From an uncultured virus (IMG/VR IMGVR_UViG_3300032132_000753) (Duplodnaviria; Heunggongvirae; Uroviricota; Caudoviricetes): 64,000 bases of DNA. The position numbers and the translations under genes were made by a program. Of this stretch, positions 1,372 to 53,571 are shown piece by piece. The notes beneath the pieces were generated by a model that searched no databases, had not been told where the DNA came from, and saw nothing but the letters and a program-made list of their open reading frames with translations. Location of the stretch: IMG/VR virus record IMGVR_UViG_3300032132_000753; one strand, given 5' to 3'. The first letter of the stretch is position 1, and the number at the start of each line of letters is the position of its first letter.

Positions 1372-1422
1372 TGTGTTCCATCAAAATTATATTTGACAGT
1401 TTGCGGCGAGTATATTAAACAT

Positions 1423-4772: not shown

Positions 4773-6050
4773 ATGGCGACTCCTGAAGAAATTGCAAAAC
4801 TGATAACTGATGATCCGGACATCTTTAACGAAATGGCCGTTGGTACAGGAGGCATTGCCATGGGTCCAATGCAGGCCCTTGGGACTCCAGCACCCAAAAA
4901 GAAAAAGCGTAAAAGTGTAAAACGCGAAGACGACGGCGACATTGGAATGCAGAAGATGCATAAACAATATTACGCCGATCCAGTTACTGGGCAATCAAAA
5001 TCCAAAGGTAGCGGAAAATCGAATGACGGAGAGGTCCTTTATTCAGACACACAAACCGAAGAACCAGAAAAAGCACTAGGAGAATCATCCGGAGATCAAG
5101 CAAGGATTGCCCAACTAGCTTCTATAACTCTGGAATCCCCACCATTAGACCAATGGTCTCACGGCGAGGAGATGAACGATGGCCTCCGCAAGAAAATTCT
5201 AGGCAGTTTTAGAAAAGCTTTCGGGTCAATGAAACAAATCGTTGATCGCCTTCCTGGTGGGTGCGCATTAGCTCAATCATGGGCTCAACATCTAGAATAT
5301 ATCCAACACCTAAGAAAATCAGACGCCCAACAGACTAGAAACCCTGTCGAATGGGAAGGCAATCCAATCGAGACACCACCTAAAGGCTGGTGGGGTCAGA
5401 AATGGGGAGTTTCAAGTTCACGAAATTACATCCTATCATTCTTTTACGAAGTTTTATACGAATATTTGTCTAAATTCCAAGAACTACAAGACGAGCACCT
5501 AGTATCTTGTGACGACGAACAATGTATGTCCGAAAACCACCAAAAATGGGTGATTAAAGCTCTATGTGCTGATATCGTTGGATTTAGCGATATTTGGGAC
5601 ATTCTTAGGACTGAACGCGCCAAAGCTTTCACCACATACCGGTACTATCAGAAACGTGGTACTAAACAAATACGCCATCAAATGAGTAAAGACGATCAAG
5701 ATCGTCTGGCGCAATGGAAAGCCAAACCTGCTCACGAGCGCGGACCAGTAATGGGTGAATTGCCCGATACTATGTCACAACTTGCCAATTGGTACAAGGA
5801 TCACCCCAAAGGACGCCGTAGCGTATTCTCTTCAGGATTCGGAGAACCAACCTTTAAAAAGGGCGATCGGGTAGAACATGCAAAATACGGCCCTGGTCAG
5901 GTAGTGTCTACTCCTAAAGAGATAGACGTATTTGTCCGAGTGATGTTCGATACAGATCTACAAACAGCATTCGGACAAATTGGACCAGGTGTTGCTCATA
6001 ATGTCAAGGTAAAACGGGTAAGAAAAGCCCACCTTGAAACCCAATACTAA
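4773..6050 (+). CDS. Putative internal head protein with C-terminal PcrA/CarD-like Tudor domain
   Basis: N-terminal [12 protein letters not shown] motif; C-terminal [19 protein letters not shown]. Confidence 0.55.
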
Positions 6051-7318
6051 AATTGTTCTTCTTCGGTCGATCCAGCCATAGCTGTAGTTGACGACCCACC
6101 ACTAGTAACAACCTTCTGAACTTTATCAAAGTATCCAGTTCCAACAAATTGTTGATGCTTGACAGCTTTAAATCCTAGGTTCTGCATGTTGGAATATTCT
6201 TCTTCTTGGACTTCCTGGTAAGCAGCCATACCGCGTTCTTTATAGTCTAGAGATAATTCGAACATGCTGTGGTTTAGTACATGGAAACCAGCCAAAGTGA
6301 TAAACTGGTAAGTATACCCTATTTTAGCTAGCTCGTTTTGGAAATCTTCAACAGGACCAGTCTTGTCCGGGTGTTGGCTCCAACGGAATGATGGCGAGCA
6401 GTTATATGCTAGCATTTTTCCTGGAAATTTAGCGTGGATAGCGTCAGCGAACCTACGAGCTTCATCTAAATCTGGTTTTCCTGTTTCACACCAAAGAAGG
6501 TCAGCGTATGGGGCGTAAGCTAACCCACGTGCGATCGCCATGTCGATGCCACCGGTAACTGGATAGAAGCCTTCTGTCGTCCTTTTAGCACCGGTAAGGA
6601 AAGGAACATCTCTACTATCAACGTCGCTAGTAAGCAATTTAGCACTATTGGCATCAGTTCTAGCGATAATAATAGTGCCTGTGCCAAGAACATCCGCTGC
6701 TAGTCTGGCGGCTTTAAGTTTATTGACAAATTCGCTGGTAGGAACTAGAACTTTGCCGCCTAAATGTCCGCATTTTTTCGCAGAAGACAACTGATCTTCA
6801 AAGTGAACACCGGCAGCGCCAGCCTTGATCATCCACTTCATAAGTTCGTAGGCGTTTAGAAGACCTCCGAACCCAGCTTCTGCGTCTGCTACGATAGGCT
6901 TGAAATAGTCTGTTTTGCCATTTCTACCACCGATTTGATCAGCTCGCTCTAAAGCATTATTAATGCGACGGATTACCTTAGGGACACTATCAGATGGGTA
7001 AAGGCTCTGGTCTGGATACATTTCTCCAGCAAGATTAGCATCGGCGGCAACTTGCCAGCCACTTAGATAAATAGCTTGAAGACCTGCTTGAACTTGTTGT
7101 ACCGCCTGGTTACCAGTTAAAGCCCCAAGGGCACGAACTGCTTTATCAGACTTTTGAGCCTGCTTTAAAGAATCCCACAATTTATCTGCAATCCACTTAG
7201 AGTACGGCAAAGGGAAGAAACGAGAGCCCCTTAAATCCAAAACATCTTCTGATGTATGATCCCTATGTGTGTCTTCCCATCGGTCTTCACAGTCCGATAA
7301 CTCTTTGGCATTGTCCAT
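6047..7318 (-). CDS. aceA: Isocitrate lyase
   Basis: Catalytic [51 protein letters not shown]. Confidence 0.97.
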
Positions 7319-7331
7319 TTGTGCTCCTATA

Positions 7332-8840
7332 TTACATTGGGTTGTGACGTCCAGACAGGACGTAACGCTCGGTTAGTATTCTAGCTTTGCGTAGTGTTTC
7401 TTCACCACCTGGCTCTGATTCCGATTCAACAAGACGCGTGTATTCCTCGTCAAATAACTGGTGAATCACTTGAGGCGTATGATCTGGAAGATGATGCATG
7501 CGTTGCGCGATTTGCAATCTAGCTCCCCTATCAGTTGCTAAATCTTCCATATATCCATCAAGCAAACTTGCACCCTTGCCATTTAGAACACCATTCCGAT
7601 AACGCATAGCAATTCTAATCGATTGCCTAGTGCCATCTAAAGTGACTTTACCACCAACGATTGGTGGTCTAAGATCAGGGTGGGCTGGAAATGGATGCAT
7701 AACACTTAACTGATTTGGGTAAGGAAATTGATCTACAGAAACCTGGTTCTGATCCGGGTGACCGGTCCATGCTCCATCCATTCCCATATTAGCTTCGTTT
7801 TTCTTATCAGCCTCTAATCCTTTAAGAGCACGTTCATTTAACTCTGGGTCTCGACGACTAGGATAAAGTGCCGTCATTCCGCCAATCGCTAAAATCCCGT
7901 GGGAATGACAAGTATTGACCATGTGAACTCTGAGATCCTGAAAAAATGCGACGTCGTGTGGAATGACGTTACGATCAGGAAGAATCATGGTAGAATCCGA
8001 AAGATTTTGCTCCATATAAGAAGCCATATAATCCCAGCGTCCAAGGTTTAATCCAACAATATGATCCCTAAGGATATAAATGAATGGGTCTAGTTGGTGC
8101 GCGAACGAGTGGCACTCTACCAGAGCCATACATTTGATGGGATTTAGTTTCAGCTCCGCAGCAACATCTCCAAATAGCGCGGCCCACCATTCTGCTTCTT
8201 CAGCATATTCTGTCTTAGGAATGTAAAAAGCTAATGGTTGTTCTACTGGCAAATCGTTGCCCTGACTAAATAACCATGCAGACATGCAGACATCAAGCAA
8301 TGAAGCGGATGTAATAGTTTGTCCGATGACTTGGTATAGGTGTAGCCCGCGTGCTCTAACGAACAAAACAGTGTTACTATCGGCAATATGCCTAATCATA
8401 TCTTTCTTTTGATATGACAATGTCCGGTTGAACAATTTTTCTAAGTTACCGTAAGCTCTGAGGAGATTTTCTCTTTCGTTGGCCATCGAGTCTTCGATAT
8501 CGACCATAACTCCTGGGGCACCAGAATTCATCATTTTGACTACTAAAGCAGCGTCATCTAACGGGCCGGTCATCTGGTTTCGTTGATCTTTACACCATTC
8601 CGGGAAATCAACTTTAAATTCTGAATTATGTAGGATTTGTCTAGGCTGTAATTCTTTAGGCCACGATTCGTAACTTTCTGGGTAGCCTACTTTATCATCG
8701 TTTTCGAAAGAATAAGTAGTGCGTTCGATCCGTTTTTTAGCAATAGTCTGTTGCCATTTAGAAAATCTTTCGTGATATGGCATGAAAAATTCTAAGAATT
8801 CTTTTGAAAGATCGGTATCAGAAATAACGTTAGTGTCCAT
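7332..8840 (-). CDS. aceB: Malate synthase (MSA-like, compact)
   Basis: [47 protein letters not shown]; start placed at ATG 8840 after an AGGAG RBS. Confidence 0.92.
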
Positions 8841-8869
8841 AAATGCTCCTTTTATAAGTACGTAAGGAT

Positions 8870-9553
8870 ATGATTCCCTTAAAGTCAACCATTTACATTC
8901 TAGGTTCAGGCGGCTTCGCTAATGAAGTAGCAACCTATATCAGAGAATTGGTTACTACATCTAGCAATCAATCGATGTCCATGCTAAGAGGCCGAACTGG
9001 AATGCTTCCAGACCACCTACAAGCCGATGTTGATATACACTACGTAGATGACCACGCCGCTGGTGAAGGAATATTAACTGTAAGAGGATACCAAAACGCT
9101 TACAGCACATTTAGTACAAAACCAAAATACTCAATTATGGGTTCAGGACAATGCAGCATCAAACTGAAGATGAAAAAGGAAATTATTGAGCCCTACTTCA
9201 GCATGCGCCATCCAAGATCTACTATTAGTGGAAGTTCACAGATCGGTAATGGTTCTGTGACTGCTCCTGGGGCTGTTATAGCCGCTAGAACTATTCTCGG
9301 AGAGCATGTTCTTGTTAATTATAACGCTACTATAGGCCATGACACGAAAATCGGATCTTTTTCTGTTGTGAGTCCTAACGCTGCTGTAGGTGGCTTTTGT
9401 GATATCGGAGAGGCAGTTTATATTGGTTCCGGTGCACAGATTAAAGAAAAGATAACTATTGGCGACGGGGCCATAATCGGCATGGGAGCCATCGTAACTA
9501 AGGATGTCCCACCCGGCGTAACTATTGTGAAAGTCAATGAAAGGCTAAATTAA
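8870..9553 (+). CDS. PglD/NeuD/PerB-family sugar acetyltransferase
   Basis: ILGSGGFANEV N-terminus, hexapeptide repeats, IGHD, GMGAIVTKDVP. Confidence 0.88.
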   Translation: MIPLKSTIYILGSGGFANEVATYIRELVTTSSNQSMSMLRGRTGMLPDHLQADVDIHYVDDHAAGEGILTVRGYQNAYSTFSTKPKYSIMGSGQCSIKLKMKKEIIEPYFSMRHPRSTISGSSQIGNGSVTAPGAVIAARTILGEHVLVNYNATIGHDTKIGSFSVVSPNAAVGGFCDIGEAVYIGSGAQIKEKITIGDGAIIGMGAIVTKDVPPGVTIVKVNERLN

Positions 9554-9741: not shown

Positions 9742-10677
9742 ATGTCAAGGAAAGACCTGTCAGGTTCTAAATTTGGCAGACTTTCAGTTCAAGACGAATA
9801 CGAAATCAGGAAACGTCGTAGGACATATTGGCGATGTATATGTGATTGTGGTAAAGAAAAATGGGTGTCCATCTCTTCTCTTAGAGCAGGAACTAAAAGT
9901 TGTGGATGTCTTGCATTAGAACTGAAAAGTTTAGAACCTGGCAAATCTGCTAAAAATCGATTTTTCCGTAGGTACAAAACTGACGCTAAAAAACGAAGTT
10001 TGAATTTTAATTTAAACTTCGAAGAATTTATTTCTTTATGTCATCAAGATTGTTTTTATTGCGGTAATATGCCAACTAAAGTACTAAGAGAGACATCCAA
10101 TGGTGACTTTGTACACAATGGTGTCGATCGTATTGATTCTAATATTGGTTATACAATAAGTAATTGTGTATCGTGCTGTTCTAAATGCAATTTTGCTAAA
10201 GGACGATTAACCCAATCAGAATTTTTTCTGATGATAGAAAGAATATATCGACACCGCATAATTTCTAAAGGTGAAACAAAACACAAAAAACGAGCGGCGT
10301 TTTTTGGTAGATGGCAACCTTTCCACAAAGGACACATGTGGTTAATTAAAAACAAGTTAGATAAAGGTATACCATGCGTCATCTTTGTTAGAGATATACC
10401 ACCAGATAAGAAAAATCCATACACCACCCAAGATACTATAGAAGTAATCAAAAAAGCTTTTAAAAATGAAGATGTTATCGTTCAAGCTTTACCCGATATT
10501 GAATCAATTAACTGGGGTCGTGGTGTTGGATATGAAACCAACGAATTTAAGCCGCCAGAAGACATAAAGAGAATATCTGCCACAGACATCAGAGATAAAA
10601 TCATGTCCAATGACGATTCTTGGAAAGAGTTTGTTACTACACCTGTAGCAGAATGGTTAGAAGAATATTATGGTTGA
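9742..10677 (+). CDS. HNH endonuclease fused to HxGH nucleotidyltransferase
   Basis: DLSGSKFGRL...WRCICDCG...SCGC, CFYCG, GVDRIDSNIGY...NCVSCCSKCN, then FGRWQPFHKGH...ISATDIR. Confidence 0.8.
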   Translation: MSRKDLSGSKFGRLSVQDEYEIRKRRRTYWRCICDCGKEKWVSISSLRAGTKSCGCLALELKSLEPGKSAKNRFFRRYKTDAKKRSLNFNLNFEEFISLCHQDCFYCGNMPTKVLRETSNGDFVHNGVDRIDSNIGYTISNCVSCCSKCNFAKGRLTQSEFFLMIERIYRHRIISKGETKHKKRAAFFGRWQPFHKGHMWLIKNKLDKGIPCVIFVRDIPPDKKNPYTTQDTIEVIKKAFKNEDVIVQALPDIESINWGRGVGYETNEFKPPEDIKRISATDIRDKIMSNDDSWKEFVTTPVAEWLEEYYG

Positions 10678-11413
10678 AACCACCAAGTTAAGGACCATAA
10701 CTAAATCGATAGTGTGGCGAATTTTCGCCACACTTATCACTTTTAGTATGATTTCCTTTATTCTTCCATTATTTCAAGCATTGGCAGCTGCCGCAATGAT
10801 TACAGCAGTCGTCGACGGCGGAGTAAAATTCGTGGCTTATTACGCTTATGAGTCTATATGGGCCAAACTCGATTTTGGTAAAAAAGTGGACAAATCCGAA
10901 GGTTGCGTCATATGGTTGACCGGGTTTTCTTGTGCAGGTAAGACTACTATTGCTATAGAGTTAGAAAAACGTCTGGAAAAACGACTTAAAAGAGTCGAAT
11001 ATCTAGACGGAGACATCTGTAGAAAATCAATGTGCCAAGACCTTGGTTTTACTAAAGCTGACAGAGATGAAAATATCAAACGAATCTCTTTAGTTAGTTC
11101 TTATCTATCCAAAAAAGCTATTACCATTTGTGCTTTTATCTCTCCATATCGAGAAGCTCGTGCTAAAGCTAAGGCCATATGCACCAATTTCATTGAAGTT
11201 TACGTAGATTGTCCTATTGACATATGCGAAGAACGAGATGTCAAAGGGATGTATGCTAAAGCGAGGGCTGGAGAAATTAAAGGATTTACCGGTATTGATG
11301 ATCCATACGAAATCCCAGAAGAACCAGACATCCACCTTTTTACTGATGTAGAATCTGTAACAGAATCAGTAGATTATATCATATGGTACTTAAAGGATAA
11401 AGGACACATCTAA
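10670..11413 (+). CDS. cysC: Adenylylsulfate (APS) kinase with N-terminal DUF2061-like membrane domain
   Basis: WLTGFSCAGKTT, LDGD, LGFTKADRDENIKRI, FISPY, RDVKGMY, FTGIDDPYEIP. Confidence 0.93.
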   Translation: MVETTKLRTITKSIVWRIFATLITFSMISFILPLFQALAAAAMITAVVDGGVKFVAYYAYESIWAKLDFGKKVDKSEGCVIWLTGFSCAGKTTIAIELEKRLEKRLKRVEYLDGDICRKSMCQDLGFTKADRDENIKRISLVSSYLSKKAITICAFISPYREARAKAKAICTNFIEVYVDCPIDICEERDVKGMYAKARAGEIKGFTGIDDPYEIPEEPDIHLFTDVESVTESVDYIIWYLKDKGHI

Positions 11414-11577
11414 TGGCGTTAGATAAAGAAAAATGTGACTATTGCGGGGAAATGAAAGACTTCGTCCTGAGGAATGTGGGGCCCCGTCGTAAGCTTAGAA
11501 TGTGTTTAGAATGCCATTCCAAGACAGAACAAAAAGACCCTAAATATTACGGGACGCATAAAAACCCGAGTAATTAA
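11413..11577 (+). CDS. Small zinc-ribbon protein (54 aa)
   Basis: Read by hand: MALDKEKCDYCGE...MCLECH; start overlaps the cysC stop (TAATG). Confidence 0.6.
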   Translation: MALDKEKCDYCGEMKDFVLRNVGPRRKLRMCLECHSKTEQKDPKYYGTHKNPSN

Positions 11578-11580
11578 AGT

Positions 11581-12702
11581 ATGATTCCTGTATATCAGCC
11601 CTGGCTTACCGATCTAGAAAAGAAATACTTAAACGAAGCGATAGATTCAAGTTGGATCTCATCTACAGGGAAATTTGTAAACAAAGCTGAAGAGATGTTC
11701 GCTGACTTTATCGGCGTGAAACATTGCGTTGTTACAACATCTGGAACCACAGCGCTCCATCTCTGTTTAAGAGCATTAGACTTACCACACTACGATGGCG
11801 ACACAAGATTAAACCCAAGCGGCACAATTGGAATCCCAGACACAACATTCGTCGCAACAGCTTTTGCAGCTTCGTATGACAAACGACCAGTTGAGCTTAT
11901 CCCAACTGATCCGCTAACTTGGAATTTAGACATCGATTGGTTGGAAAAACGTCTAGAAGACGGTTACCGTTACCATGCGATTGTTCCAGTCCACCTTTAT
12001 GGTAACCCATGTGATATGGAACGGCTCCAAGAGCTTGCAAAAACATATAAATTCAAACTAATCGAAGACGCATGTGAAAGTTTAGGAGCCACAATTAGAG
12101 GAAAGAAAACAGGGGCATGGAGTGATGTGGCCTGTTTCTCGTTTTATGGCAACAAATCGTTCACTTGCGGAGAAGGCGGAGCGCTTGTTACAGACGACGA
12201 TGCCCTAGCTCACCGCGCTGCTATGTTGCGAGGTCAAGCCCAAGATCCTTGTAAGCGCTATTGGCACGTAGATGTTGGTTATAATTATCGCATGACTAAC
12301 ATGCAAGCTGCTGTACTATGTGGACAGTTAGAACGTGCTGATGAAATCCTACAAGAGAAAGAACGTGTAGCAAAACGCTATTTAAACGCGCTCCAAGGCC
12401 ATTTCAAATCTCAAAAAATCTTACCAACCCATACGCACTCAAATTGGATTGTCTCATTAGAGCTGCCCGTAGAACAACCAGCAGTGACCGACCTCATGAG
12501 GCAACGTGGAATTGATACTCGTAAAGTCTTCTATCCTTTATCAGCGATGCCACCTTACCAATTCCATGATACACACCCCGTAGCAGAGCACCTTTCTAAA
12601 TACGGAATTTCACTTCCTTCATACCCGCAATTGACAAACGAAGAAGTTGATTTTATCTGTAAGAACCTAATTGAGTGCGTCGATATAGTTAAAGGTTCTT
12701 AA
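11581..12702 (+). CDS. DegT/DnrJ aminotransferase, GDP-perosamine synthase-like
   Basis: MIPVYQP, WISSTG, SGTTALHL, VHLYG, IEDACESLG, FSFYGNK, GYNYRMTNMQAA. Confidence 0.92.
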   Translation: MIPVYQPWLTDLEKKYLNEAIDSSWISSTGKFVNKAEEMFADFIGVKHCVVTTSGTTALHLCLRALDLPHYDGDTRLNPSGTIGIPDTTFVATAFAASYDKRPVELIPTDPLTWNLDIDWLEKRLEDGYRYHAIVPVHLYGNPCDMERLQELAKTYKFKLIEDACESLGATIRGKKTGAWSDVACFSFYGNKSFTCGEGGALVTDDDALAHRAAMLRGQAQDPCKRYWHVDVGYNYRMTNMQAAVLCGQLERADEILQEKERVAKRYLNALQGHFKSQKILPTHTHSNWIVSLELPVEQPAVTDLMRQRGIDTRKVFYPLSAMPPYQFHDTHPVAEHLSKYGISLPSYPQLTNEEVDFICKNLIECVDIVKGS

Positions 12703-12725
12703 TTTCGTATCTAAAGGGGAACTGC

Positions 12726-13544
12726 ATGAAACAAGCTCATATCGCAATTTTCCACGGGTTAGGCGACTGTGTAAACATCACAACTTTCGTTGGAGCAATA
12801 AAACGAAAGCACCCAAATTGTAAGATTACCTGGATTACATATGAAGGGTATAAGGGCATCGCAGAGCACAATCCTAATATCAACAAAATTGTAACTTACA
12901 ATGATAAAGGTGGAATTGCTGGATTCGCTTGTGATAAACATTACAAAACATTAAGATCTAAACACCCTAAACTTATCACCCCAGCGTCCTATATTAGCGG
13001 ATTACAAGACAAAACCCTCCTTGGTGATTTCAAAGTAAAGATTAAAGCTCTAGGGTTAGATCCAAATCCTTTTACCCCGCAGCTATGGATTACGCCGCAG
13101 GAAATTGAAGATGCTAAAATTTGGTTAAACAAAAGAAGTATCAAAGACTTCGTAATGTTAGAAGCTAAATTTGGATCTCAACAGTCTTTCTGGAAAAGAC
13201 AGCACACTATTAAAGTTTTAGAGCAGTGCAAAAAGAAGGGCTTATCAGTCCTTTTAACTCATAGATCTGATCCTGGCCTCGCCGAATTCAATAAAATAAC
13301 TCCAACTTTTTGTATGGATGTTAATTATCGATACTTTATTCCATTCTACAATATGTCTAAAGGGTTTGTTGGGGTTAGTAGTAGCGCTTCTTGTATAGTC
13401 CATACGCACCAATGTATTAATAGCATACCACATCTGGAATTTGTTCGTGGAGACCATTGGAGCACTAGTCATTATAAGAAAACTAATAAGACAATATCCT
13501 TCGATGAAAAACAAGTCTCCAAATTAATCCAAAAGAAGATATAA
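12726..13544 (+). CDS. GT9-like glycosyltransferase
   Basis: HGLGDCV...IKRKHPNCKITWIT...HNPNI; FVGVSS. Confidence 0.78.
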   Translation: MKQAHIAIFHGLGDCVNITTFVGAIKRKHPNCKITWITYEGYKGIAEHNPNINKIVTYNDKGGIAGFACDKHYKTLRSKHPKLITPASYISGLQDKTLLGDFKVKIKALGLDPNPFTPQLWITPQEIEDAKIWLNKRSIKDFVMLEAKFGSQQSFWKRQHTIKVLEQCKKKGLSVLLTHRSDPGLAEFNKITPTFCMDVNYRYFIPFYNMSKGFVGVSSSASCIVHTHQCINSIPHLEFVRGDHWSTSHYKKTNKTISFDEKQVSKLIQKKI

Positions 13545-13547
13545 CAT

Positions 13548-13994
13548 ATGTCCGTTTTATACGTTTACGATTTTGACGACTGTTTAGTTAATACTCGTCA
13601 AGTCTTAGAAGACAATGATTGGTTTACTAGAGAAAACATCTCCAAACTAATCATAGACGATAACCCATTTGGGAGGCAGGTTTCTAATTTAACAACACCT
13701 TTGTCTACTATGGTTAAAGCAATCGAATCTAGCACAACCGGCCATAATATCATTTTATCAGGCCGGAGCGCAGCCCAAATCCAGTACTGGCTTCAAAAAT
13801 TCAGATATGATTTGTACTTCAAAACCGTGATTGGGTTGGCATTATGGGGAGATATATCAGAACACAAGAAAAGCGTAATCGAACGGTATCTAGATAGGTA
13901 CGATCGAGTAGTCTTCTATGATGACAAAATCGAAAATATCGAAGCAGCCCAAACTCTAGATAAGGTAACAACCCACCATGTCCAGCCCTACTAA
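13548..13994 (+). CDS. HAD-superfamily phosphatase
   Basis: YDFDDCL, ILSGR, conserved K, FYDD. Confidence 0.8.
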   Translation: MSVLYVYDFDDCLVNTRQVLEDNDWFTRENISKLIIDDNPFGRQVSNLTTPLSTMVKAIESSTTGHNIILSGRSAAQIQYWLQKFRYDLYFKTVIGLALWGDISEHKKSVIERYLDRYDRVVFYDDKIENIEAAQTLDKVTTHHVQPY

Positions 13995-14916
13995 AGAACA
14001 AACTGTTAAAGCCTTGTCTCGGGGACCTATATACCCGATCCCTCCAGCCTTCAAAAATGGCGTTCTTGATCGCGCAGAAATCCTTCGGTACACAAACTAC
14101 CTCCACGACAACGGTGCTAAAACCATCCTGACTACAGCCGGGACATCACGGTTTAATTTACTAACAACTGATGAAGTACGGCAACTAAATTTCAGTGTTT
14201 CTCTATTTCCAGGAAGAAAAATCGTCGGGTTACAACCACTAGCGGATGTTCATCTTGCTAATGAACTTAATGCTATGAACAGCTTAGACGCTGATGCTGT
14301 ACTATTGTTTTATCCAGATCGTTATTACGATGACGAAACAATAGTAAACTATTTTCACAAAGCAGCAGACATTTCTCCATTACCAGTATTAATTCACGGA
14401 ATGTTTATGCGGCACGCTTTAGGTGGAATGTATAATTTCCAACAAGAGTTGGTTGTAAAGCTAATGGGCCACCCCAACATTGTAGGAATGAAAGAGGAAA
14501 GCTCGACTTATTCCCTGGCCTACAAAATTTCATCTTTAGCTAATAAGGAATTTCTAATTTTCCCAGCAGGTGGTAGTTGCCGACGATATTTATTGACAGG
14601 CCCATCAGGAGCACAAACATTCTTGGGTGGCATAGGAAATATTTTCCCTAAAATTGAAGAAACTTTCTTTAGGGAATTTAAGTTTGGCGACAAAAACACA
14701 GCATATAAAATTGTCACTGATTTCGAAGAATCGCTGTTCGATGTGTTCAGCAAAATTGGTTGGCACAAAGCTTTACAAGAAGCATTAAATTACAAGAAAC
14801 TACTAGTAACTGAAAACAGAGCACCCTTTAGCCTTATGACAAATGATGAGGACAAAGAAGCTATACACAATGTACTAGATACTATAGAACTAAGATGGGA
14901 AACATATTATGGATAA
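13978..14916 (+). CDS. DapA/NanA-family class I aldolase (divergent)
   Basis: IPPAF, GTSRFNLLTTDE, HPNIVGMKEESS Schiff-base Lys. Confidence 0.82.
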   Translation: MSSPTKEQTVKALSRGPIYPIPPAFKNGVLDRAEILRYTNYLHDNGAKTILTTAGTSRFNLLTTDEVRQLNFSVSLFPGRKIVGLQPLADVHLANELNAMNSLDADAVLLFYPDRYYDDETIVNYFHKAADISPLPVLIHGMFMRHALGGMYNFQQELVVKLMGHPNIVGMKEESSTYSLAYKISSLANKEFLIFPAGGSCRRYLLTGPSGAQTFLGGIGNIFPKIEETFFREFKFGDKNTAYKIVTDFEESLFDVFSKIGWHKALQEALNYKKLLVTENRAPFSLMTNDEDKEAIHNVLDTIELRWETYYG

Positions 14917-15673
14917 CGTTTGGATTTTAGGACCCTGCTCTATTGAAAATGAAGAGTTGTATCTCTCAACCGGAGAATATCTTTATAAACACATGCAGGG
15001 GAAAGACTGGTACTACAAAGCTTCCTATGACAAAGCGAATAGAACAGCTCTAGTAGGTAAAAGAGGCCCAGGTCTGGATGAAAGTCTAAAATTGTTCGCG
15101 GAAATTAAGAAACGTTGCCCAGGCATTAAATTGACTACTGATGTTCATGAATGCTGGCAGGTTGAAAAAATTGCACCATACGTCGACGTAGTACAAATTC
15201 CAGCTTTTCTCTGTCGTCAGACTGACCTTCTAGCTGAATGTGGCAAACACTTCGACGTTGTCAACATTAAAAAAGGTCAATGGATCAATCCGGATAGCAC
15301 GAAGCACTTCGTAGGTAAAGTCAAGAGTCAGAATCCGGATTGTAAAGTTTGGATGACTGAACGAGGGACATTCTTTGGATATAACCAACTAATCGTCGAT
15401 TTAGGTGCAGTAGAAGCCATGCTACCTTATTACGATAGAGTTATTTTGGACTGTACTCACTCTACCCAACGTAAAAAGGGTGATTTCACTGGCGGTGACC
15501 GTGAACTAGCTAAGAAATATCTCCTAGCTTCATCAATTTTCGGCTATAACGGTGTTTTCGCTGAATGTCATCCAAGACCACCAGAAGCTTATTCTGATGG
15601 CGATTGCCAACTGTATCTAACTGATGTTCCTGGTGTTCTAGAACAGTTTGAAAAAATTAAAAAGGCAATGTAA
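14909..15673 (+). CDS. kdsA: Kdo-8-phosphate synthase
   Basis: GPCSIE, KASYDKANRT, TDVHE, QIPAFLCRQTDL, KKGQ, ERG, DCTHS, ECHP...SDG. Confidence 0.93.
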   Translation: MDNVWILGPCSIENEELYLSTGEYLYKHMQGKDWYYKASYDKANRTALVGKRGPGLDESLKLFAEIKKRCPGIKLTTDVHECWQVEKIAPYVDVVQIPAFLCRQTDLLAECGKHFDVVNIKKGQWINPDSTKHFVGKVKSQNPDCKVWMTERGTFFGYNQLIVDLGAVEAMLPYYDRVILDCTHSTQRKKGDFTGGDRELAKKYLLASSIFGYNGVFAECHPRPPEAYSDGDCQLYLTDVPGVLEQFEKIKKAM

Positions 15674-16383
15674 TGAAACTCTTATCCATAGTTCCTGCCC
15701 GTGGTGGTTCTAAACGTCTTCCAGGAAAGAATGCTATGGACTTAGGAGATAAACCTTTATTATGGCATACTCTAGATGCTGTAGCTGAACATTCTGATAC
15801 AATCATATTAACGTCGGATTCTCTTGAAATTCTAGAGTTAGGAGAAAGGTGGTATCTGGAAAATACGGATGCTAATATTCTGTTACACAGACGGGATCCA
15901 AGGTTTGCTACTGATACATCTAAAGTTTTAGAAATAGTTTGCCACATCGTTGAAGAACATAATGATTTCGATGCCGTCGGTCTTTTTCTCCCAACAGCAC
16001 CACTACGCAATTCCGAAGATGTCGCTGCTGCTTTAATTCAACTTAGGTCTTCAGATTCTGAAGGAGTTATCAGCACAACACATTATGAATTTCCACCTAC
16101 ATTAGCGCTTGTTAAAGACCCAGACGGGTTTTTACATTGTGCTGATAAGTCTTTGCCATTTATTACAGGGAATACTAGGTCTCAAGACCATCCGGAAATG
16201 CTGCGACCTAACGGGGCTATCTATATAAAATATATGGAAGAGTTTCAACGAGATCAGAATTTTTTCAAAGGGCGAGTAACAAGTTACTTAATGCCGAGAG
16301 AACGTTCTGCTGATATTGATACTGAATTAGACCTTAAAATGGCGGAATTACTTTATGAAAGAACTAACAAAACTCTGGGATAA
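15673..16383 (+). CDS. CMP-ulosonate (acylneuraminate/Kdo) cytidylyltransferase, NeuA-like
   Basis: IVPARGGSKRLPGKN, PTAPLR, RSQD, NGAIY, SADIDTELD. Confidence 0.92.
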   Translation: MKLLSIVPARGGSKRLPGKNAMDLGDKPLLWHTLDAVAEHSDTIILTSDSLEILELGERWYLENTDANILLHRRDPRFATDTSKVLEIVCHIVEEHNDFDAVGLFLPTAPLRNSEDVAAALIQLRSSDSEGVISTTHYEFPPTLALVKDPDGFLHCADKSLPFITGNTRSQDHPEMLRPNGAIYIKYMEEFQRDQNFFKGRVTSYLMPRERSADIDTELDLKMAELLYERTNKTLG

Positions 16384-16978
16384 AAAGGCAACGAAAAGCC
16401 ATAAACACTTTTCGAAACATGTCAAAGGATACAAGTTAAAAGAATTCCAAGATCGCTTCCAGAAACATGTTCTAAACCAATTAAACTTTTCGAAAATTAA
16501 TACCGCCCTTGATTGGGGATGCGGTGGTGGCATTCTAGCCAAAGAAATGTCTAAACATTGCCAAGTAACACTAGCAGACTTATCTAAAGAAAGCCTAGAC
16601 GAGGCCATTAGATATATTGGAAAACCATTAAAACAAATCGTTGTTTCCGATAATTGGAATGAACTAGCAAAGATTAACGTCGACCTAATTCTATGTTATG
16701 ATGTTATCCATCATTTCCCATCTATTGCATACTGGAAACAGGTTGCCTCTACTTGGAATAAAATAGGACCAAAATTCATAGCTGCTAGAATTAAGGTAAA
16801 ACCGAAGATTTCTGAAAACAAGGATTACTTCGAAGGTAGAAATTATCTTGATGGTCTATTCCTAAACAAGAAGGAAATACAAGAAGCCTTCCCAGGATAT
16901 TCAATTACTTATTGGACCGATGACATTACAAAAATTAGCCGCCGACAAGTTGCTCAGCTAATTTTAACTAAAAAATAA
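16355..16978 (+). CDS. Class I SAM-dependent methyltransferase
   Basis: ALDWGCGGG; DLILCYDVIHHFP. Confidence 0.85.
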   Translation: MKELTKLWDKKATKSHKHFSKHVKGYKLKEFQDRFQKHVLNQLNFSKINTALDWGCGGGILAKEMSKHCQVTLADLSKESLDEAIRYIGKPLKQIVVSDNWNELAKINVDLILCYDVIHHFPSIAYWKQVASTWNKIGPKFIAARIKVKPKISENKDYFEGRNYLDGLFLNKKEIQEAFPGYSITYWTDDITKISRRQVAQLILTKK

Positions 16979-17593
16979 TCACTTATTGATTACTACTTTA
17001 TCTTCTTTGCCCCATTTAGCGATTTGTTTCATTTCATTGTTTATATTGTGAAACAACGATGTCGGTGGTCTCGGATGCCAATAATGCGTGCGGCTTAAGC
17101 CAGCTTCTATATCGAACCCGTAAAGATGTGGCTTGAATCCAGCCATGATTAAAATGGTTACAAATGTAAAGCCAATAGTTGGGTTAGTAGTAATGACTCC
17201 CAATTTCTTTCGCATTGCATGAACGGCTAATCCACGCTCTAAAATATTGACATTATTACTTGGATCACAATATTTGTTTCTCTGCTTAACATATGCCCTA
17301 GCAAGTCTATCAACTAACAAATTCTGATTTTTCAACTTCTTTACGAAGTTAATGTCGTCTTTCCAACGCTTCAGTGGCGCGCTGGTGAATGTAGGTTGGT
17401 TAAGAACCCTAACAGTGGTCTTGCTACCTACATGTTTTTCCCAGTTTTCTACAGGCGCTCTATTAAATCTCACAACTTCGGCGTATGTATCGATTTGCTC
17501 GCCGTACATGGTATCCAGTAATCGTCCGGATGATCCTATGACGGCGATGCTTGGATTTAAATTCATAATTGGGTCTGTGAGAGGAACGTGCAT
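16979..17593 (-). CDS. GT29 family sialyltransferase-like protein
   Basis: Sialylmotif L (AVIGSSGRL...GEQID...VVRFNRAP...HVGSKTT), S (PTIG...LYGF), III (HYW) and VS (HNINNE). Confidence 0.88.
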   Translation of the reverse strand: MHVPLTDPIMNLNPSIAVIGSSGRLLDTMYGEQIDTYAEVVRFNRAPVENWEKHVGSKTTVRVLNQPTFTSAPLKRWKDDINFVKKLKNQNLLVDRLARAYVKQRNKYCDPSNNVNILERGLAVHAMRKKLGVITTNPTIGFTFVTILIMAGFKPHLYGFDIEAGLSRTHYWHPRPPTSLFHNINNEMKQIAKWGKEDKVVINK

Positions 17594-17642
17594 ATATTAT
17601 CTTTGGTGTCTAGCAAAATATATAAGAAGGGACATCACACAT

Positions 17643-18473
17643 ATGAAAATATCCGTCGGAATGTTAGTCGTCAATGGGCGACCTTTTATTAAAGCCCAAC
17701 TAGAAAACCTATATGACGTTGCACATGAAATAGTTATTTCTGAAGGTGGTGATCAATTTTGGAGAGAACGCCACGGATTCACAAGATCCAACGATGGCAC
17801 AATAGACATCATCAAAAACTTCCCAGACCCAAAAAACAAGATCAAATTAATCCAACGAGAATGGAAAAACAAAAATGAGATGTCCCACGCCTATAGTAAA
17901 GGCATGACTGGCGACATCATCTACAACGTCGATCTAGATGAGTTTATCCATCCTAAACAGCTAATCTCAGTTTGCAAAAATCTGATGAAATCTAAGAAGA
18001 AAAGCTCTGCAACTATCCCAAATTACGTGTTTTTTGGTGATTTTAACACATTGATGGTTATGGAACACACGGACACCTGGTTCCAGACTCCTCGGATCTT
18101 CAAAAGAAGCCCAAACCACCTGATGCATCACTTGCCTCCTGCGTACTGGAAGAATGGCATCGTCGGCGCTGCTCCGCTACCTGCGTCAGAGAACCCAGGT
18201 GTTTTTATCCATCATTATTCTTGGATTTACAAGAAATCAGTCCATGACAAAATTGGATATTATAATTATAGGATTAAAGGATGTATCAAACCAGGTTTCC
18301 TAAAAATGTTCGACAGTTTTGATGTTGAACGCGAAAATCTAATAAAAACCAGAACAAACATCAGACCTACTCAAGGGAAGAAGCAATTCTTAAAGCCATA
18401 TAAAGGTAAACAACTAGGGCTGGTCGTTCAAAACATTAAAAACGAAATCGCACTCCTAGAATCACAAGGGTAA
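17643..18473 (+). CDS. GT-A (GT2-like) glycosyltransferase
   Basis: EIVISEG, SNDGT, VDLDEF, HHYSW; start moved to ATG 17643. Confidence 0.75.
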   Translation: MKISVGMLVVNGRPFIKAQLENLYDVAHEIVISEGGDQFWRERHGFTRSNDGTIDIIKNFPDPKNKIKLIQREWKNKNEMSHAYSKGMTGDIIYNVDLDEFIHPKQLISVCKNLMKSKKKSSATIPNYVFFGDFNTLMVMEHTDTWFQTPRIFKRSPNHLMHHLPPAYWKNGIVGAAPLPASENPGVFIHHYSWIYKKSVHDKIGYYNYRIKGCIKPGFLKMFDSFDVERENLIKTRTNIRPTQGKKQFLKPYKGKQLGLVVQNIKNEIALLESQG

Positions 18474-18475
18474 AC

Positions 18476-19039
18476 ATGAAAATTATTCCAAGAGTAGAAA
18501 CTAAAGGCGTTATTTATAAAAATGACGATGTCTTATATCACCAAGAAGCATTAAAAACTTCATATTACAACTTTTACCAAAGTTATGGTGCACATTACAA
18601 ACCAAAATCGGTCTACGAAATAGGGGTTAGAGCAGGATATACCGCTTACTACCTATTAAAAGGTTCCGGGGCGACCAAATATCGTGGCATCGACCTAGAA
18701 ACATATAAAATTCATTCTAACGATTTAGCTTTACCATTAGTTCGCAAAGTCTGTAAAGACTCCCAAATCGAATTAGGCAGCAGTCACGCGCTAGAGAAGC
18801 TGGACCAGCTTTATGATTTGATCCATATCGACGGAGACCATAGTTTCCACGGCAAGGTTCAAGACTTAGAGTTATCCTTAGCTTCTCTGGCACCAGGTGG
18901 AGTGATCGTAGTTGATGATTACAACGCTAAATTAGGGATCGAAGTTAAAAAAGCTACTGACGTATTCGCCGAGAAGCACAATTTAAAGCTGATCCCACTT
19001 AAAACCTTCACAGGCCATGCTTTACTAGAACGTCAGTAG
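18476..19039 (+). CDS. SAM-dependent methyltransferase (Methyltransf_24-like)
   Basis: YEIGVRAGYT, DLIHIDGDHS, LAPGGVIVVDDY. Confidence 0.88.
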   Translation: MKIIPRVETKGVIYKNDDVLYHQEALKTSYYNFYQSYGAHYKPKSVYEIGVRAGYTAYYLLKGSGATKYRGIDLETYKIHSNDLALPLVRKVCKDSQIELGSSHALEKLDQLYDLIHIDGDHSFHGKVQDLELSLASLAPGGVIVVDDYNAKLGIEVKKATDVFAEKHNLKLIPLKTFTGHALLERQ

Positions 19040-19047
19040 ATAATGAT

Positions 19048-19980
19048 ATGCACTCAAAATTGGTCAATAAGATATATTCGGAAGAAAGAATCGTCCCAGC
19101 CATGGCTGGATGGTTAAAGCTTCAACCGCATGATCGTAAAATTATCGTTGAGCAAAATCGCAACCTAGGCGATACATTACATCTTATACCAATTATCAGG
19201 CACTACAGGAAATTATATCCTAAGGCCATGATCATATTCTTAGTAGGATCAACTTACTCTGGAGCACATGAATATAATCAAGACTTAGACAGAATCTACA
19301 CTATCAAACCTCTAGGAGTCCGACCTAGAATAGCACTGCGCAAAGAGTTACTAAAACTAGCTGCTAAAACCAAAGACATCCAAGTTATTTCACCATCGAT
19401 TTTCCCTTACGGCGAAATTTGGAAGGAATTGGCTTGGAGCCATGCTGATATTGCCACACAGTACTTTGTAAATGCCGGTATTAACAAGAAAGAACTTAAG
19501 GGATTTGACAGGTCGTTGTTCGTTAATTTAACGCAGGCTGACAGAGATTGGGCTAAAGGGTTTGTTAAAAAACACAAGCTGAAGAAATTTGGCACACTAG
19601 AATATAACAGTTATTCACATCCTACAAATTGGAAAATAGCTCAGTTTGTAAAGCTAGCCACAGAACTTAAGAAAAAAGGTATCCAATGTGTCAGTTTAGC
19701 GGGCCCCAAGGAAAGACCTGTTGGCGGGACGGTAAATGGCACAGGAACAAGTTGGCGTAAAACAGTAGCTCTAATGGAACACGCCACTTTCCATGTGGGT
19801 GTCGGCTCTGGCTTAACAATGTTAGCAGCAACTGTTGACAAGAGTAAACGCCCAAAGATTATTGAAGTTGCAGTTTCTCCTTCAATTTCAATGGACGCAT
19901 GCGGGTATGCAGATAGTATCTCCATTCGTGGCGATGTTTCACCGGCTCGCGTCATTAAACAAGTATGCAAATATGTATAA
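19048..19980 (+). CDS. GT9-like glycosyltransferase
   Basis: NLGDTLHLIPII...YPKAMI; HVGVGSGLTMLA. Confidence 0.8.
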   Translation: MHSKLVNKIYSEERIVPAMAGWLKLQPHDRKIIVEQNRNLGDTLHLIPIIRHYRKLYPKAMIIFLVGSTYSGAHEYNQDLDRIYTIKPLGVRPRIALRKELLKLAAKTKDIQVISPSIFPYGEIWKELAWSHADIATQYFVNAGINKKELKGFDRSLFVNLTQADRDWAKGFVKKHKLKKFGTLEYNSYSHPTNWKIAQFVKLATELKKKGIQCVSLAGPKERPVGGTVNGTGTSWRKTVALMEHATFHVGVGSGLTMLAATVDKSKRPKIIEVAVSPSISMDACGYADSISIRGDVSPARVIKQVCKYV

Positions 19981-20668
19981 AGCTACCGCAATCGTTTCAG
20001 TTTACAACTCTGAAAAATTCATCAGAAACAAGGTAAAAAACCTATTAGAATCTGTTGAACCTATCCAAATTGTTCTGATAGATTGCACTGGTGGTAAAGA
20101 ATTAGCATTAGTAAGGGATCTCACTAACACTAAACAATTCATAAAAGTAATATTCAATAGGCGCATTACAGTGTGGAAAGCTATGAACATAGGGATTAAG
20201 TTAGCAGACACCCAATATGTTGTTCAAGCTAACACTGACGATTATGTCCTACCAGTTGGATATAAAGCACAGATCGAGAAATTAGAAGAAGGAAACGACA
20301 TTGCCTATTTCGACTATAAATTAGCAGCATACGCTAAAACATGGAAAAAAGGCTTCGACAATTCTCACGACTATTATAAATGCTCCCCAAAGGGATACGC
20401 GCCAGGTTGTGGCTTAGGACCATTCCCGATGTGGAGAAAATCGCTCCACGACAAACACGGACTGTTAAATGAAGATTTAGAAATATATAGTGATTCTTTA
20501 TTTTGGGGAGATTTAGCAGCCGACCCAGACACCAGATGGGGACACATTCCAGATTTTTATGGCGTCTACGCCCATAGGACTGACAGTTTGGAAAGAAATG
20601 AACGGCATCGAGTTAAAGACAGAGCAACTCTAAAGAAGATTAAAAAGGATAGAAATGCTATTAACTAA
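19973..20668 (+). CDS. GT2 glycosyltransferase
   Basis: AIVSVYNSEKFI, AMNIGI, ANTDD, GPFPMWRKSLH; start at ATG 19973. Confidence 0.82.
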   Translation: MYKATAIVSVYNSEKFIRNKVKNLLESVEPIQIVLIDCTGGKELALVRDLTNTKQFIKVIFNRRITVWKAMNIGIKLADTQYVVQANTDDYVLPVGYKAQIEKLEEGNDIAYFDYKLAAYAKTWKKGFDNSHDYYKCSPKGYAPGCGLGPFPMWRKSLHDKHGLLNEDLEIYSDSLFWGDLAADPDTRWGHIPDFYGVYAHRTDSLERNERHRVKDRATLKKIKKDRNAIN

Positions 20669-24274: not shown

Positions 24275-24559
24275 ATGTTTCTAGTAATGTATGCAAAAAT
24301 TACAGACCTGAAGAAAAAAGGTCTCAAGATGGATGGTCCTTTTTTCGGAGTAGAGGTTGAAACATTAGATAAAGCCCACAAAGAGTGCCAAAAATTGGTC
24401 ACTTCTTGTAAGGAAACCGTTTTAGTGAAAACTTTCGATCTAGATGAATATGTTGAGATGGAAGCCAAAAAAGAAGCTATTATCTATTTTAGCAGGATAT
24501 ACGACGATATGAAAATCGCGCAAATTTTGTGTGATGCGCCTAAACGACGCCGTAAATAA
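24275..24559 (+). CDS. Hypothetical protein
   Basis: ATG 24275 after a GTATATAG motif and GGGAAGGG. Confidence 0.55.
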   Translation: MFLVMYAKITDLKKKGLKMDGPFFGVEVETLDKAHKECQKLVTSCKETVLVKTFDLDEYVEMEAKKEAIIYFSRIYDDMKIAQILCDAPKRRRK

Positions 24560-24561
24560 CT

Positions 24562-24757
24562 GGATCAGTAGCTTAACCGATGACCAGTCTGGGTATTCTC
24601 TGGGGGTAGAAAGTATTCCGTCAGGGGCCAACATAAAGGACTACGAACACTGGTAAACGTCTTATGGAAACTAGTTCGTGTGGTACGGTCTTTTGGCTAC
24701 GCTTGTGCGATAAACTTGTGAAAGTAGATGATGGAGGTTCGAATCCTCCCTGATCCC
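24562..24757 (+). ncRNA. tRNA-like structured RNA (196 nt) with about 120 nt of extra internal sequence
   Basis: Perfect acceptor stem GGATCAG/CTGATCC, TAGCTTAA after it, perfect T arm GGAGG-TTCGAAT-CCTCC; fills an intergenic gap almost exactly. Confidence 0.75.
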
Positions 24758-25617
24758 TAAGTAATGAAGACGTCCGGATCCTCAGTTAAAAGATCCGCAA
24801 TTCGTTGAACATTTTCGAATGAAAGCATGTCCTTCTCTTCACCCTCTTCTGGTGGAGGTGCAGCTTCCGCTTCTTCTTCCTGGCCTTCTTCGCCAGGTTC
24901 CTCAACTCCAAAGGGACCAAGCTCTGGGTCGGCACCTTCTCCTCCTTCGAGGTCTTCTTCGCCGCCCTCTAAATCACCTTCTAGATCGCCCATAGGCTCG
25001 CCAAAGCCTCCGCCACCTAAACCGCCACCCATGCCCATACCCATGTCATCTTCTGGAGGCATTTGTTCTGTGGGCTCAGGACCACCCTCTGGTTCGGCTC
25101 CCATTGGGTCTTCAAATTCTTCTTCTGGCTCTTCAGCAGTAACTGAAGGTTGAGTGAAGGTAGCCATTGGCATTAATTCAGAAGGATCGTGGCCATCCTC
25201 TGGATTTGTTGATTGGTGAGTGACTTCTAAATTAAGTTCTTCCCTAACTCTGTCAGCGAATTCCCGGTTAATTGCCAAATAGTAATTTACGCGCAAGTTC
25301 TTGCTGAAATTGTGTTTGATGTTATCGTCCCCGGTAGTATCAGCAACACGGGCAACTAGCTCTTTTTTCTTTTGTGGATCAACGCAGTTAAGATAAATAT
25401 TCTTGATGGTTAGACCGGCTGGATTGAATTTGACTTTCAACCGACGGTGGTCTAGCACTAAACCGCTTTTTTCCGCGATTTGTTTTAGAATGCCTACGAT
25501 ATCTCCAAATACTTCTTCGTCCAAAGTAGTGTTTTCAGCGAACTTTTCCTGATAGTCATCGAATATATCAGGGTCCTCTGTAATTAGGGAAGCGATTTTG
25601 AGAATGTCGTCTGACAT
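24757..25617 (-). CDS. Acidic putative head/scaffold-associated protein
   Basis: E/G/P-rich; IAxLxTEDPDxF motif at both ends. Confidence 0.65.
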   Translation of the reverse strand: MSDDILKIASLITEDPDIFDDYQEKFAENTTLDEEVFGDIVGILKQIAEKSGLVLDHRRLKVKFNPAGLTIKNIYLNCVDPQKKKELVARVADTTGDDNIKHNFSKNLRVNYYLAINREFADRVREELNLEVTHQSTNPEDGHDPSELMPMATFTQPSVTAEEPEEEFEDPMGAEPEGGPEPTEQMPPEDDMGMGMGGGLGGGGFGEPMGDLEGDLEGGEEDLEGGEGADPELGPFGVEEPGEEGQEEEAEAAPPPEEGEEKDMLSFENVQRIADLLTEDPDVFIT

Positions 25618-52932: not shown

Positions 52933-53571
52933 CTATTCTTGATTTACCCAACCGGCAAGATTGTCTGATACAAACTTCCAATTAATATCGGCAATCAGAT
53001 CGTCAACATAATCTTCTTTTTTAGATTTATAGTCAACGTAATACGCATGTTCCCATACATCCAAAGCCATCGCTGGATAAATCAGAGGAACACTACAATC
53101 ATGCGAATCGATTAAACTAAGAAAAAGCTTCTTACTTCTAGGATCGAACCCTAGTAAAGCCCAGCCCTTAGAACCCATCAAAGTAGCTTTAAGTAATTTT
53201 TTGAAATGTTTAACGCTGCCAAAATCTCTCTTTAGCAGTTTCTCAAGATCTTTAGGCATATCAGTTGCGCCTAAACTACCGAAATATAGCTCATGAAGCA
53301 CAACGCCATTATAGTTAAAACTTAAGTCGAAAAGTGCGGAACGATAATCGTCTCCGTTATGACTAACACCTTCTAGCGAAGATCGGTTAATCTTTTCCTG
53401 GGCTGCTTCTAAACCTTTTAGATAGCCCTGATAGTGATTATCGAAGTGCTCATCGATCTGTTCTTTAGATAAAAAGCAAGAAGGCTTCTTTGTTTTAGGT
53501 TCTTTACCTTCAGATAAGATAAAGTCTAATTCTCGATCAATGCTCGCGGTAAATTTAGATATTCTGTCCAC
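52933..53571 (-). CDS. sod: Fe/Mn superoxide dismutase
   Basis: EHFDNHYQGY, LHELYF, GWA, DVWEHAYY. Confidence 0.92.
   Translation of the reverse strand: MDRISKFTASIDRELDFILSEGKEPKTKKPSCFLSKEQIDEHFDNHYQGYLKGLEAAQEKINRSSLEGVSHNGDDYRSALFDLSFNYNGVVLHELYFGSLGATDMPKDLEKLLKRDFGSVKHFKKLLKATLMGSKGWALLGFDPRSKKLFLSLIDSHDCSVPLIYPAMALDVWEHAYYVDYKSKKEDYVDDLIADINWKFVSDNLAGWVNQE

Follow-up and report, generated by a model that had tools for sequence, protein, structure and literature searches.

Can a gene with the outer half of a tRNA, and with about 150 unrelated bases in place of the decoding part, still be regarded as a tRNA gene, and if not, what kind of RNA might it encode? This question is raised by a 196-base tRNA-shaped gene at 24562-24757 (+) in a stretch of marine megaphage DNA. 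The whole stretch that was analysed (64,000 nt), called here the window, is part of a contig of 311,419 bp from a marine metagenome. It is phage-like and very densely coded, with phage-type matches to Tail_P2_I, tail-fibre PHROGs and collagen repeats, and one of its proteins has 36% identity to a protein of a 595-kb uncultured phage. The parts of the element and its two neighbouring genes are as follows.

24275..24559, plus strand: upstream co-oriented small ORF, 94 aa from a conserved Met, kept in relatives
24562..24568, plus strand: 5' acceptor strand GGATCAG, 7/7 Watson-Crick pairs with CTGATCC at 24750-56
24569..24576, plus strand: tRNA positions 8-15, TAGCTTAA (U8, A9, G10, C11, A14), equal to the Rfam tRNA consensus UAGCuuAa
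24577..24732, plus strand: interior, 156 nt, without an anticodon arm or a recognisable D-stem partner; the Rfam tRNA model matches nothing here
24733..24749, plus strand: T arm GGAGG-TTCGAAT-CCTCC, perfect 5-bp stem and canonical loop UUCGAAU; the sole part matched by RF00005
24750..24757, plus strand: 3' acceptor strand CTGATCC and discriminator C; CCA is not encoded, and TA follows C24757
24757..25617, minus strand: convergent gene of a 286-aa acidic protein, abutting the element; 21 homologues beside the window's own

tRNA-derived ends and a non-tRNA interior

Direct reading of the letters agreed with the sequence-only reading of this DNA as to the acceptor, the T8-A9 stretch, the T arm, the C discriminator and the missing CCA. 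All pairs of the two arms (12/12) and the T loop are intact, and UAGCUUAA in the element is the tRNA consensus for positions 8-15. A convincing 3' D-stem partner for 24569-76 was found neither in relaxed ARAGORN models nor in a deletion scan, both of which are described below. A search on either strand of the window for T arms (5 bp, loop TTCRANNC) followed by the end of a perfect acceptor, whose 7-bp pairing spans 66-400 nt, gave two sites only, the real tRNA-Val at 1423-1495 and the element. As first-order Markov shuffles (n=300) contained 0.0067 such arm pairs per window, and as the only other site is a real tRNA, the ends of the element are truly tRNA-derived and not a product of chance.

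With its default settings ARAGORN reported tRNA-Val only in the window, and so did Rfam 15 at gathering score, the element being neither called by the former nor matched by the latter. Both checks had been proposed together with the description of the element as unclassified, and that description stands after them. RF00005 reaches 14.4 bits on the element (gathering cut-off 29 bits), and this over model positions 44-63, which is the T arm only. A permissive Rfam scan of 24400-24900 (E<=10) gave five weak matches, none of them to tmRNA, group I intron, Y RNA or ribozyme families. The ARAGORN tmRNA search (-m) at an 80% threshold found nothing at the element, and neither did the ARAGORN intron search at default settings. 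When the threshold of the intron search was lowered to 80%, three overlapping weak models appeared, one of them a tRNA-Phe(GAA) with a 126-nt intron at 24593-24718, placed at the non-canonical position 32/33, and with 2/4 D-stem positions paired (1 Watson-Crick, 1 G-U). An anticodon arm (5-bp stem, 7-nt loop) combined with a closed D stem was found neither in the Rfam scan nor in the folds of the element, in agreement with the earlier remark that no clean anticodon arm is present.

A scan of single deletions (1498 variants) yielded 67 variants which passed the ARAGORN default threshold, with at least 12 different anticodons among them, and no single deletion restored a unique convincing cloverleaf. 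Because the perfect arms lift almost any interior past the ARAGORN threshold, no anticodon identity can be assigned. Alanine identity is ruled out because position 3:70 is A:U, so that the absence of G3:U70 had been noted correctly. A His-like identity had been suggested as well; bacterial HisRS identity needs G-1 opposite C73, and base -1 of the element is T, which speaks against this suggestion. Bulge-helix-bulge motifs occur at the chance level (1 seen versus 1.32 expected). A direct repeat of 7 nt, GAAAGTA, is found at 24609 and 24720, 111 nt apart; its occurrence is close to chance level and its interpretation as a target-site duplication was rejected. Removal of the 111 nt between the two copies produced no tRNA at default settings and a weak Asn(ATT) call at 95% (ARAGORN). 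The element is thus no recognisable tRNA, tmRNA or intron-bearing tRNA, and genes of such kind are missed by standard tRNA and Rfam annotation.

The helices that had been drawn on paper in the interior (ACCG-ATG-ACCA with TGGT-A-CGGT, ACGAAC with GTTCGT, and ACTT-GTGA-AAGT) and the frame ANIKDYEHW-stop (9 codons, 24627-56) are all present in the letters, as is a second D-arm-like hairpin preceded by TA, TTCT-CTGGGGGT-AGAA at 24596-24611. The sequence-only reading had further spoken of a "large folded insert". The whole element has a minimum free energy of -56.6 kcal/mol (z -0.70), which is equalled by 49 of 200 shuffles; for the interior (24571-24732, 162 nt), folded with the acceptor and T arm fixed, z is +0.83 against 300 shuffles. 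As the interior folds no better than shuffled sequence, the insert cannot be called folded on grounds of energy. In the constrained ensemble, the closing helix and the ACGAAC/GTTCGT hairpin, both proposed earlier, have pair probabilities of at most about 0.5, while local hairpins with pair probability >0.7 are located at 24598-24626, 24649-24675, 24700-24709 and 24714-24725.

Genomic setting and relatives

The element takes up the entire space between its convergent neighbour genes, with base precision. Its 5' acceptor strand begins 2 nt past the stop codon of the upstream plus-strand ORF (base -1 is T), and base 24757, the 1 nt that it has in common with the other gene, is both the discriminator C and the first base of the stop codon of the minus-strand gene 24757-25617. 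No promoter-like or terminator-like site was found beside the element, nor any promoter-like site between it and the small ORF; the small ORF and the element are probably co-transcribed. The element is solitary and lies 23 kb from the only tRNA of the window, tRNA-Val (1423-1495), which is packed likewise: its CCA is not encoded, and the ATG of the next ORF directly follows its discriminator. This tRNA-Val has a sigma-70-like promoter of its own, TTGACA-N17-TATATT, directly upstream (window 1394-1422).

Scanning of 61 ORFs of the window revealed neither an SmpB domain nor a TROVE-domain protein, and no integrase was found near the element among the scanned ORFs. Besides the phage-type matches, the window holds many sugar/LPS genes, isocitrate lyase, malate synthase, superoxide dismutase and thymidylate kinase. 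A bacterial host is indicated by a GT9 heptosyltransferase, a GGDEF protein and a DAHP_synth_1-family gene, which we take to be KDO-8-phosphate synthase (our own reading and not the name given by the tool). Code 11 suits the ORFs of the window well. Isocitrate lyase (PF00463, E 3e-108) and malate synthase (PF01274, E 7e-46) lie side by side at 6047-8888 (-), and this glyoxylate-shunt pair would be an unusual set of auxiliary metabolic genes for a tailed phage. The long sugar/LPS block (window 9742-20668 and 53555-56125) includes APS kinase, DegT aminotransferase, the DAHP_synth_1-family gene, cytidylyltransferase-type genes, several methyltransferases, a GT29 sialyltransferase-like ORF (16979-17593, E 3.5e-20) and a GT2-GT9 fusion.

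Relatives of this locus were found through the convergent gene. Its 286-aa product has no Pfam or PHROG family match, and its homologues are 55-81% identical over residues 1-150, the closest ones (71-81%) being encoded on contigs of up to 112 kb; the protein carries an IA-L-(I/L)TEDPD(I/V)F motif at both the N- and C-termini, separated by a long acidic middle rich in Gly, Glu and Pro. Alignment of the homologues led to four metagenome loci (JGI metagenomes) and one IMG/VR record, G001 (IMGVR_UViG_3300030385_002649, 370,804 bp, with terminal repeats); scans of IMG/VR with neighbour proteins found nothing when single proteins were used, and only G001 when alignments were used. The small ORF is 46% identical to its counterpart in locus L003 (E 7e-33) and 43% identical to that in L002 (E 3e-26). 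The overlap of the convergent genes is about 11 nt in L003, where nothing separates them, and 26 nt in L002 and G001; in L001 a co-directional gene follows after 3 nt. The element is therefore absent in all three relatives (3/3) in which that gene end is visible. As the two genes overlap without any spacer in L002 and L003, the unit that was gained or lost corresponds exactly to tRNA positions 1 to 73 (196 nt). No T-arm motif occurs in the first four relative loci; across all five, the longest match to the element is 10 nt, and G001 has the same short matches to it as L002.

A homologue of the element was sought in phage records, IMG/VR, GTDB genomes and the relatives' loci, and none was found. 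Blastn of 24400-24900 against 50,697 phage records gave no match, and exact patterns in IMG/VR (three patterns in all) gave 0 matches for the 3' 24-mer and 0 for an interior 20-mer. The 3' 21-mer matched twice in GTDB (185,579 species genomes). We consider these two matches as chance, because neither lies in a tRNA according to ARAGORN and both are in GC-rich stretches which, when read by eye, look like transporter-like coding sequence. Of the sequencing runs listed for this DNA none is an RNA run; the only one that covers it in full is probably the source sample, and a second run matched in pieces of 151 nt and 37 nt only, both outside the element. The literature on T4 species 1 RNA, phage tRNA introns and tRNA-like RNAs, as far as it was covered by our search (1970s papers in subscription journals lay outside it), describes no element of this kind.

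Oversized tRNA-shaped genes in a related phage and among known RNAs

The complete related phage G001 carries 38 tRNA-model matches, most of which form one minus-strand array. At the end of this array lie three oversized units of 157, 114 and 93 nt, 0-4 nt apart (217126-217493; L009 327-694, -). In the 93-nt and 114-nt units, the 7 and 9 anticodon-loop positions aligned by the model are taken up by 32 and 52 nt, respectively. The acceptor and T arm of the 157-nt unit are perfect, and its match is confined to model positions 10-63 (21 bits). All three fold well (z -3.24 and -2.74 for the 93-nt and 114-nt units, -3.10 for the 157-nt unit), and as read from the folds, their anticodon-type loops are of 6 or 8 nt or hold large inserts. 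With these tRNA-shaped genes of 93, 114 and 157 nt in G001, the clade appears to make oversized tRNA-like RNAs. Like the element, the units belong to the same phage clade and have perfect acceptor and T arms around extra sequence. Unlike the element, however, they lie in a tRNA array, have retained D and anticodon-like arms and are well folded (z -2.7 to -3.2). The interior of the element shows no similarity to the 157-nt unit (alignment z 1.22), and the acceptor GGATC-G, which is common to the element and two G001 genes, was judged a chance resemblance.

The closest known system is the T4 RNAC (together with RNAD). Roles of both RNAs are described as unknown in passages of two papers (PMC3014915; PMC9697503). 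As read from the annotated T4 record, RNAC (species 1 RNA, rnaC; NC_000866.4 70908-71046) is 139 nt long, with a 7-position acceptor-type pairing at its ends (5 pairs and 2 U-U), the T arm CCGGG-TTCGAAT-CCCGG next to it, and an interior of about 100 nt which is strongly structured (z -4.57); CCA is not encoded. It has nothing in Rfam 15 at gathering score, the best being a weak 17.5-bit tRNA-Sec alignment. RNAC thus resembles the element in its acceptor-type end pairing beside a canonical T arm, its long non-tRNA interior, the lack of an encoded CCA, and in that Rfam sees little past the T arm and has no gathering-score match. On the other hand, the two have no sequence similarity (alignment of the interior, z 0.36), the element is longer and less structured (196 nt, z -0.70, versus 139 nt, z -4.57), and it is solitary between convergent protein genes while RNAC is a member of a tRNA array. 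The element also keeps tRNA nucleotides 8-15 and a perfect acceptor, in contrast to the two U-U mismatches in the acceptor of RNAC. If the element is called a "T4 RNAC-like phage stable RNA", this names an informal kind and not a curated family.

Other known RNAs are more distant. The tRNA-like domain of tmRNA (RF00023 and its clan) has the same topology, with an acceptor and T arm around a long interior and no anticodon arm, but the element has no G3:U70 and no tmRNA-type tag, and neither Rfam nor ARAGORN finds a tmRNA in it. Bacterial tRNA genes with group I introns, such as cyanobacterial tRNA-Leu(UAA), have a tRNA frame split by more than 100 nt; they keep a full cloverleaf, and a group I core takes about 200 nt or more. 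The element, in contrast, has no cloverleaf and no Intron_gpI match at E<=10. As for the bacterial Y RNA-like YrlA, its tRNA-like module is said to be internal, the ends of the RNA forming the Ro60-binding stem. A passage in one paper describes YrlA as a non-coding RNA with a tRNA-mimicking module (PMC4201824), and to this extent it may be likened to the element. In the latter, however, the acceptor is the terminal helix, and there is neither an Rfam match nor a TROVE protein among the 61 ORFs.

Possible nature of the element

The element has no cloverleaf, fits exactly between two genes and is absent from the relatives. The best explanation, which we rate at roughly an even chance, is that it encodes a small RNA of tRNA descent which does not decode and which is released by the enzymes of tRNA processing. 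The top half of a tRNA is read by RNase P, 3'-trimming nucleases, the CCA-adding enzyme and T-loop modification enzymes. In the element, this top half (acceptor stem, T arm and nucleotides 8-15) is kept, and some 150 nt of unrelated sequence stand in place of the D-stem partner and the anticodon arm. It would be transcribed together with the small ORF ending 2 nt upstream, RNase P would cut at G24562, and trimming to C24757 would be followed by addition of CCA by the host. These steps would yield a stable RNA of about 199 nt with the shape of a tRNA and, for the upstream mRNA, a defined 3' end. The intact top half would then be the handle by which RNase P, the 3'-trimming nucleases and the CCA-adding enzyme act on the RNA, with any role in trans being conjectural. 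Bacterial RNase P prefers U at -1, and base -1 of the element, U in the RNA, was counted in favour of this explanation.

Several observations argue for this explanation as a whole, which stays at about even chances: arms beyond chance expectation, the retained positions 8-15, the exact fit into the gap, the similar packing of tRNA-Val, the layout of T4 RNAC and the oversized genes of G001. Against it stands the lack of any homologue, and thus of support from conservation or covariation. Also against it, the interior is unstructured, whereas T4 RNAC (z -4.57) and the 157-nt unit of G001 (z -3.10) are structured, and the element is solitary, outside a tRNA array, with no promoter or terminator found beside it.

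The main rival, possible but clearly less likely, is that the element is a tRNA gene in decay. It would have been acquired by this phage lineage and then broken up through an insertion or through recombination among tRNA genes, recently enough for its arms to be still perfect, and its RNA would have no function. An interior without excess structure and without homologues speaks for this scenario, the absence of the element from all three relatives with a visible site agrees with it, and the second D-arm-like hairpin would fit a mosaic of tRNA pieces. Yet decay by point mutations should strike the arms as well, and these are intact in all 12 pairs and in the T loop; no single deletion gives a unique good tRNA (67/1498 pass, with at least 12 anticodons), and the GAAAGTA repeat, being close to chance, offers no better route, since deletion between its copies gives no tRNA at default settings. 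Moreover, useless 196 nt would not be expected in a tightly packed region, nor would their exact fit between genes. Absence from the relatives at the same spot would also agree with a scar of site-specific integration, or with a small mobile cassette at a tRNA gene, the element supplying the tRNA 3' end. We find this very improbable, as neither the T arm nor the acceptor 3' strand has a second copy within the element or next to it, no integrase lies nearby among the scanned ORFs, the 3' 21-mer is in no tRNA of the 185,579 species genomes and the 3' 24-mer in no IMG/VR contig, and the element is unique so far.

A tRNA gene with one or more large introns, for instance the tRNA-Phe(GAA) with a 126-nt intron at 24593-24718 which ARAGORN draws at 80%, finds a parallel in the G001 tRNA-model matches that carry 32 and 52 nt at 7 and 9 anticodon-loop positions. 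This reading, which the sequence-only reading had listed among its options, is nevertheless improbable. The intron search was empty at default settings, and in the relaxed model the D stem has 2/4 pairs and the intron is at the non-canonical 32/33. There is no group I match at E<=10 (and 126 nt are too short for a group I core), bulge-helix-bulge motifs do not exceed expectation (1 versus 1.32), and the deletions give no unique cloverleaf. In addition, neither the tRNA-splicing endonuclease (PF01974) nor RtcB (PF01139) was found in the complete relative G001, and the gene content suggests a bacterial host; we know of no protein-based tRNA splicing in bacteria. The other option listed there, a reduced tmRNA, combining a tRNA-like domain with a short tag frame for phage trans-translation, is close to refuted. 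It has in its favour the tmRNA-like topology and the short frame ANIKDYEHW-stop at 24627-56, but A3:U70 stands where the alanine determinant G3:U70 is needed, the ARAGORN tmRNA search was empty at 80%, no Rfam tmRNA family appeared at E<=10, the end of the tag is neither hydrophobic nor Ala-rich and does not form a tmRNA-like C-terminus, and the 61 scanned ORFs include none with an SmpB domain. What holds of the earlier description of an unclassified tRNA mimic is hence the tRNA origin of the element, its absence from all detectors and from the families of Rfam 15, and that decoding by it cannot be demonstrated; the tmRNA, intron and His readings attached to it are not supported.

The explanation as a non-decoding tRNA-derived RNA may be carried further. 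The element could be an expressed, RNase P-processed and CCA-tailed "top-half" tRNA mimic with a cargo of about 150 nt, which acts in trans and belongs, with T4 RNAC, to a broad uncatalogued class of non-decoding RNAs with tRNA shape in large marine phages; in this full form, we regard the proposal as unlikely. Such an RNA might, for example, sequester defence toxins or host factors which recognise tRNAs by the acceptor/T-arm end, or else its interior might be delivered into tRNA pathways. If large marine phages make repeated use of the acceptor/T-arm half as a scaffold for RNAs, this half would be either a portable handle for processing and stability or a bait for tRNA-binding host factors, and more natural examples would make the choice between handle and bait testable. 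To these the element adds a case outside a tRNA array, whose borders are tRNA positions 1 and 73; as an orphan, it is of limited value by itself until relatives or RNA data come to light.

Two further observations concern tRNA genes of G001. At about 220.8-222.3 kb (L009), there are four units of about 85-88 nt in which a T-loop motif is combined with acceptor pairing over 7 bp and with a mismatch in the first pair of the T stem. None of these units is called by the tRNA model at E<=0.001; they may be tRNAs with an unusual acceptor/T-stem split. At 235071-235142 (L010), ARAGORN at a 95% threshold reports a 72-nt tRNA with the anticodon TCA, reading UGA, which may be an opal suppressor.
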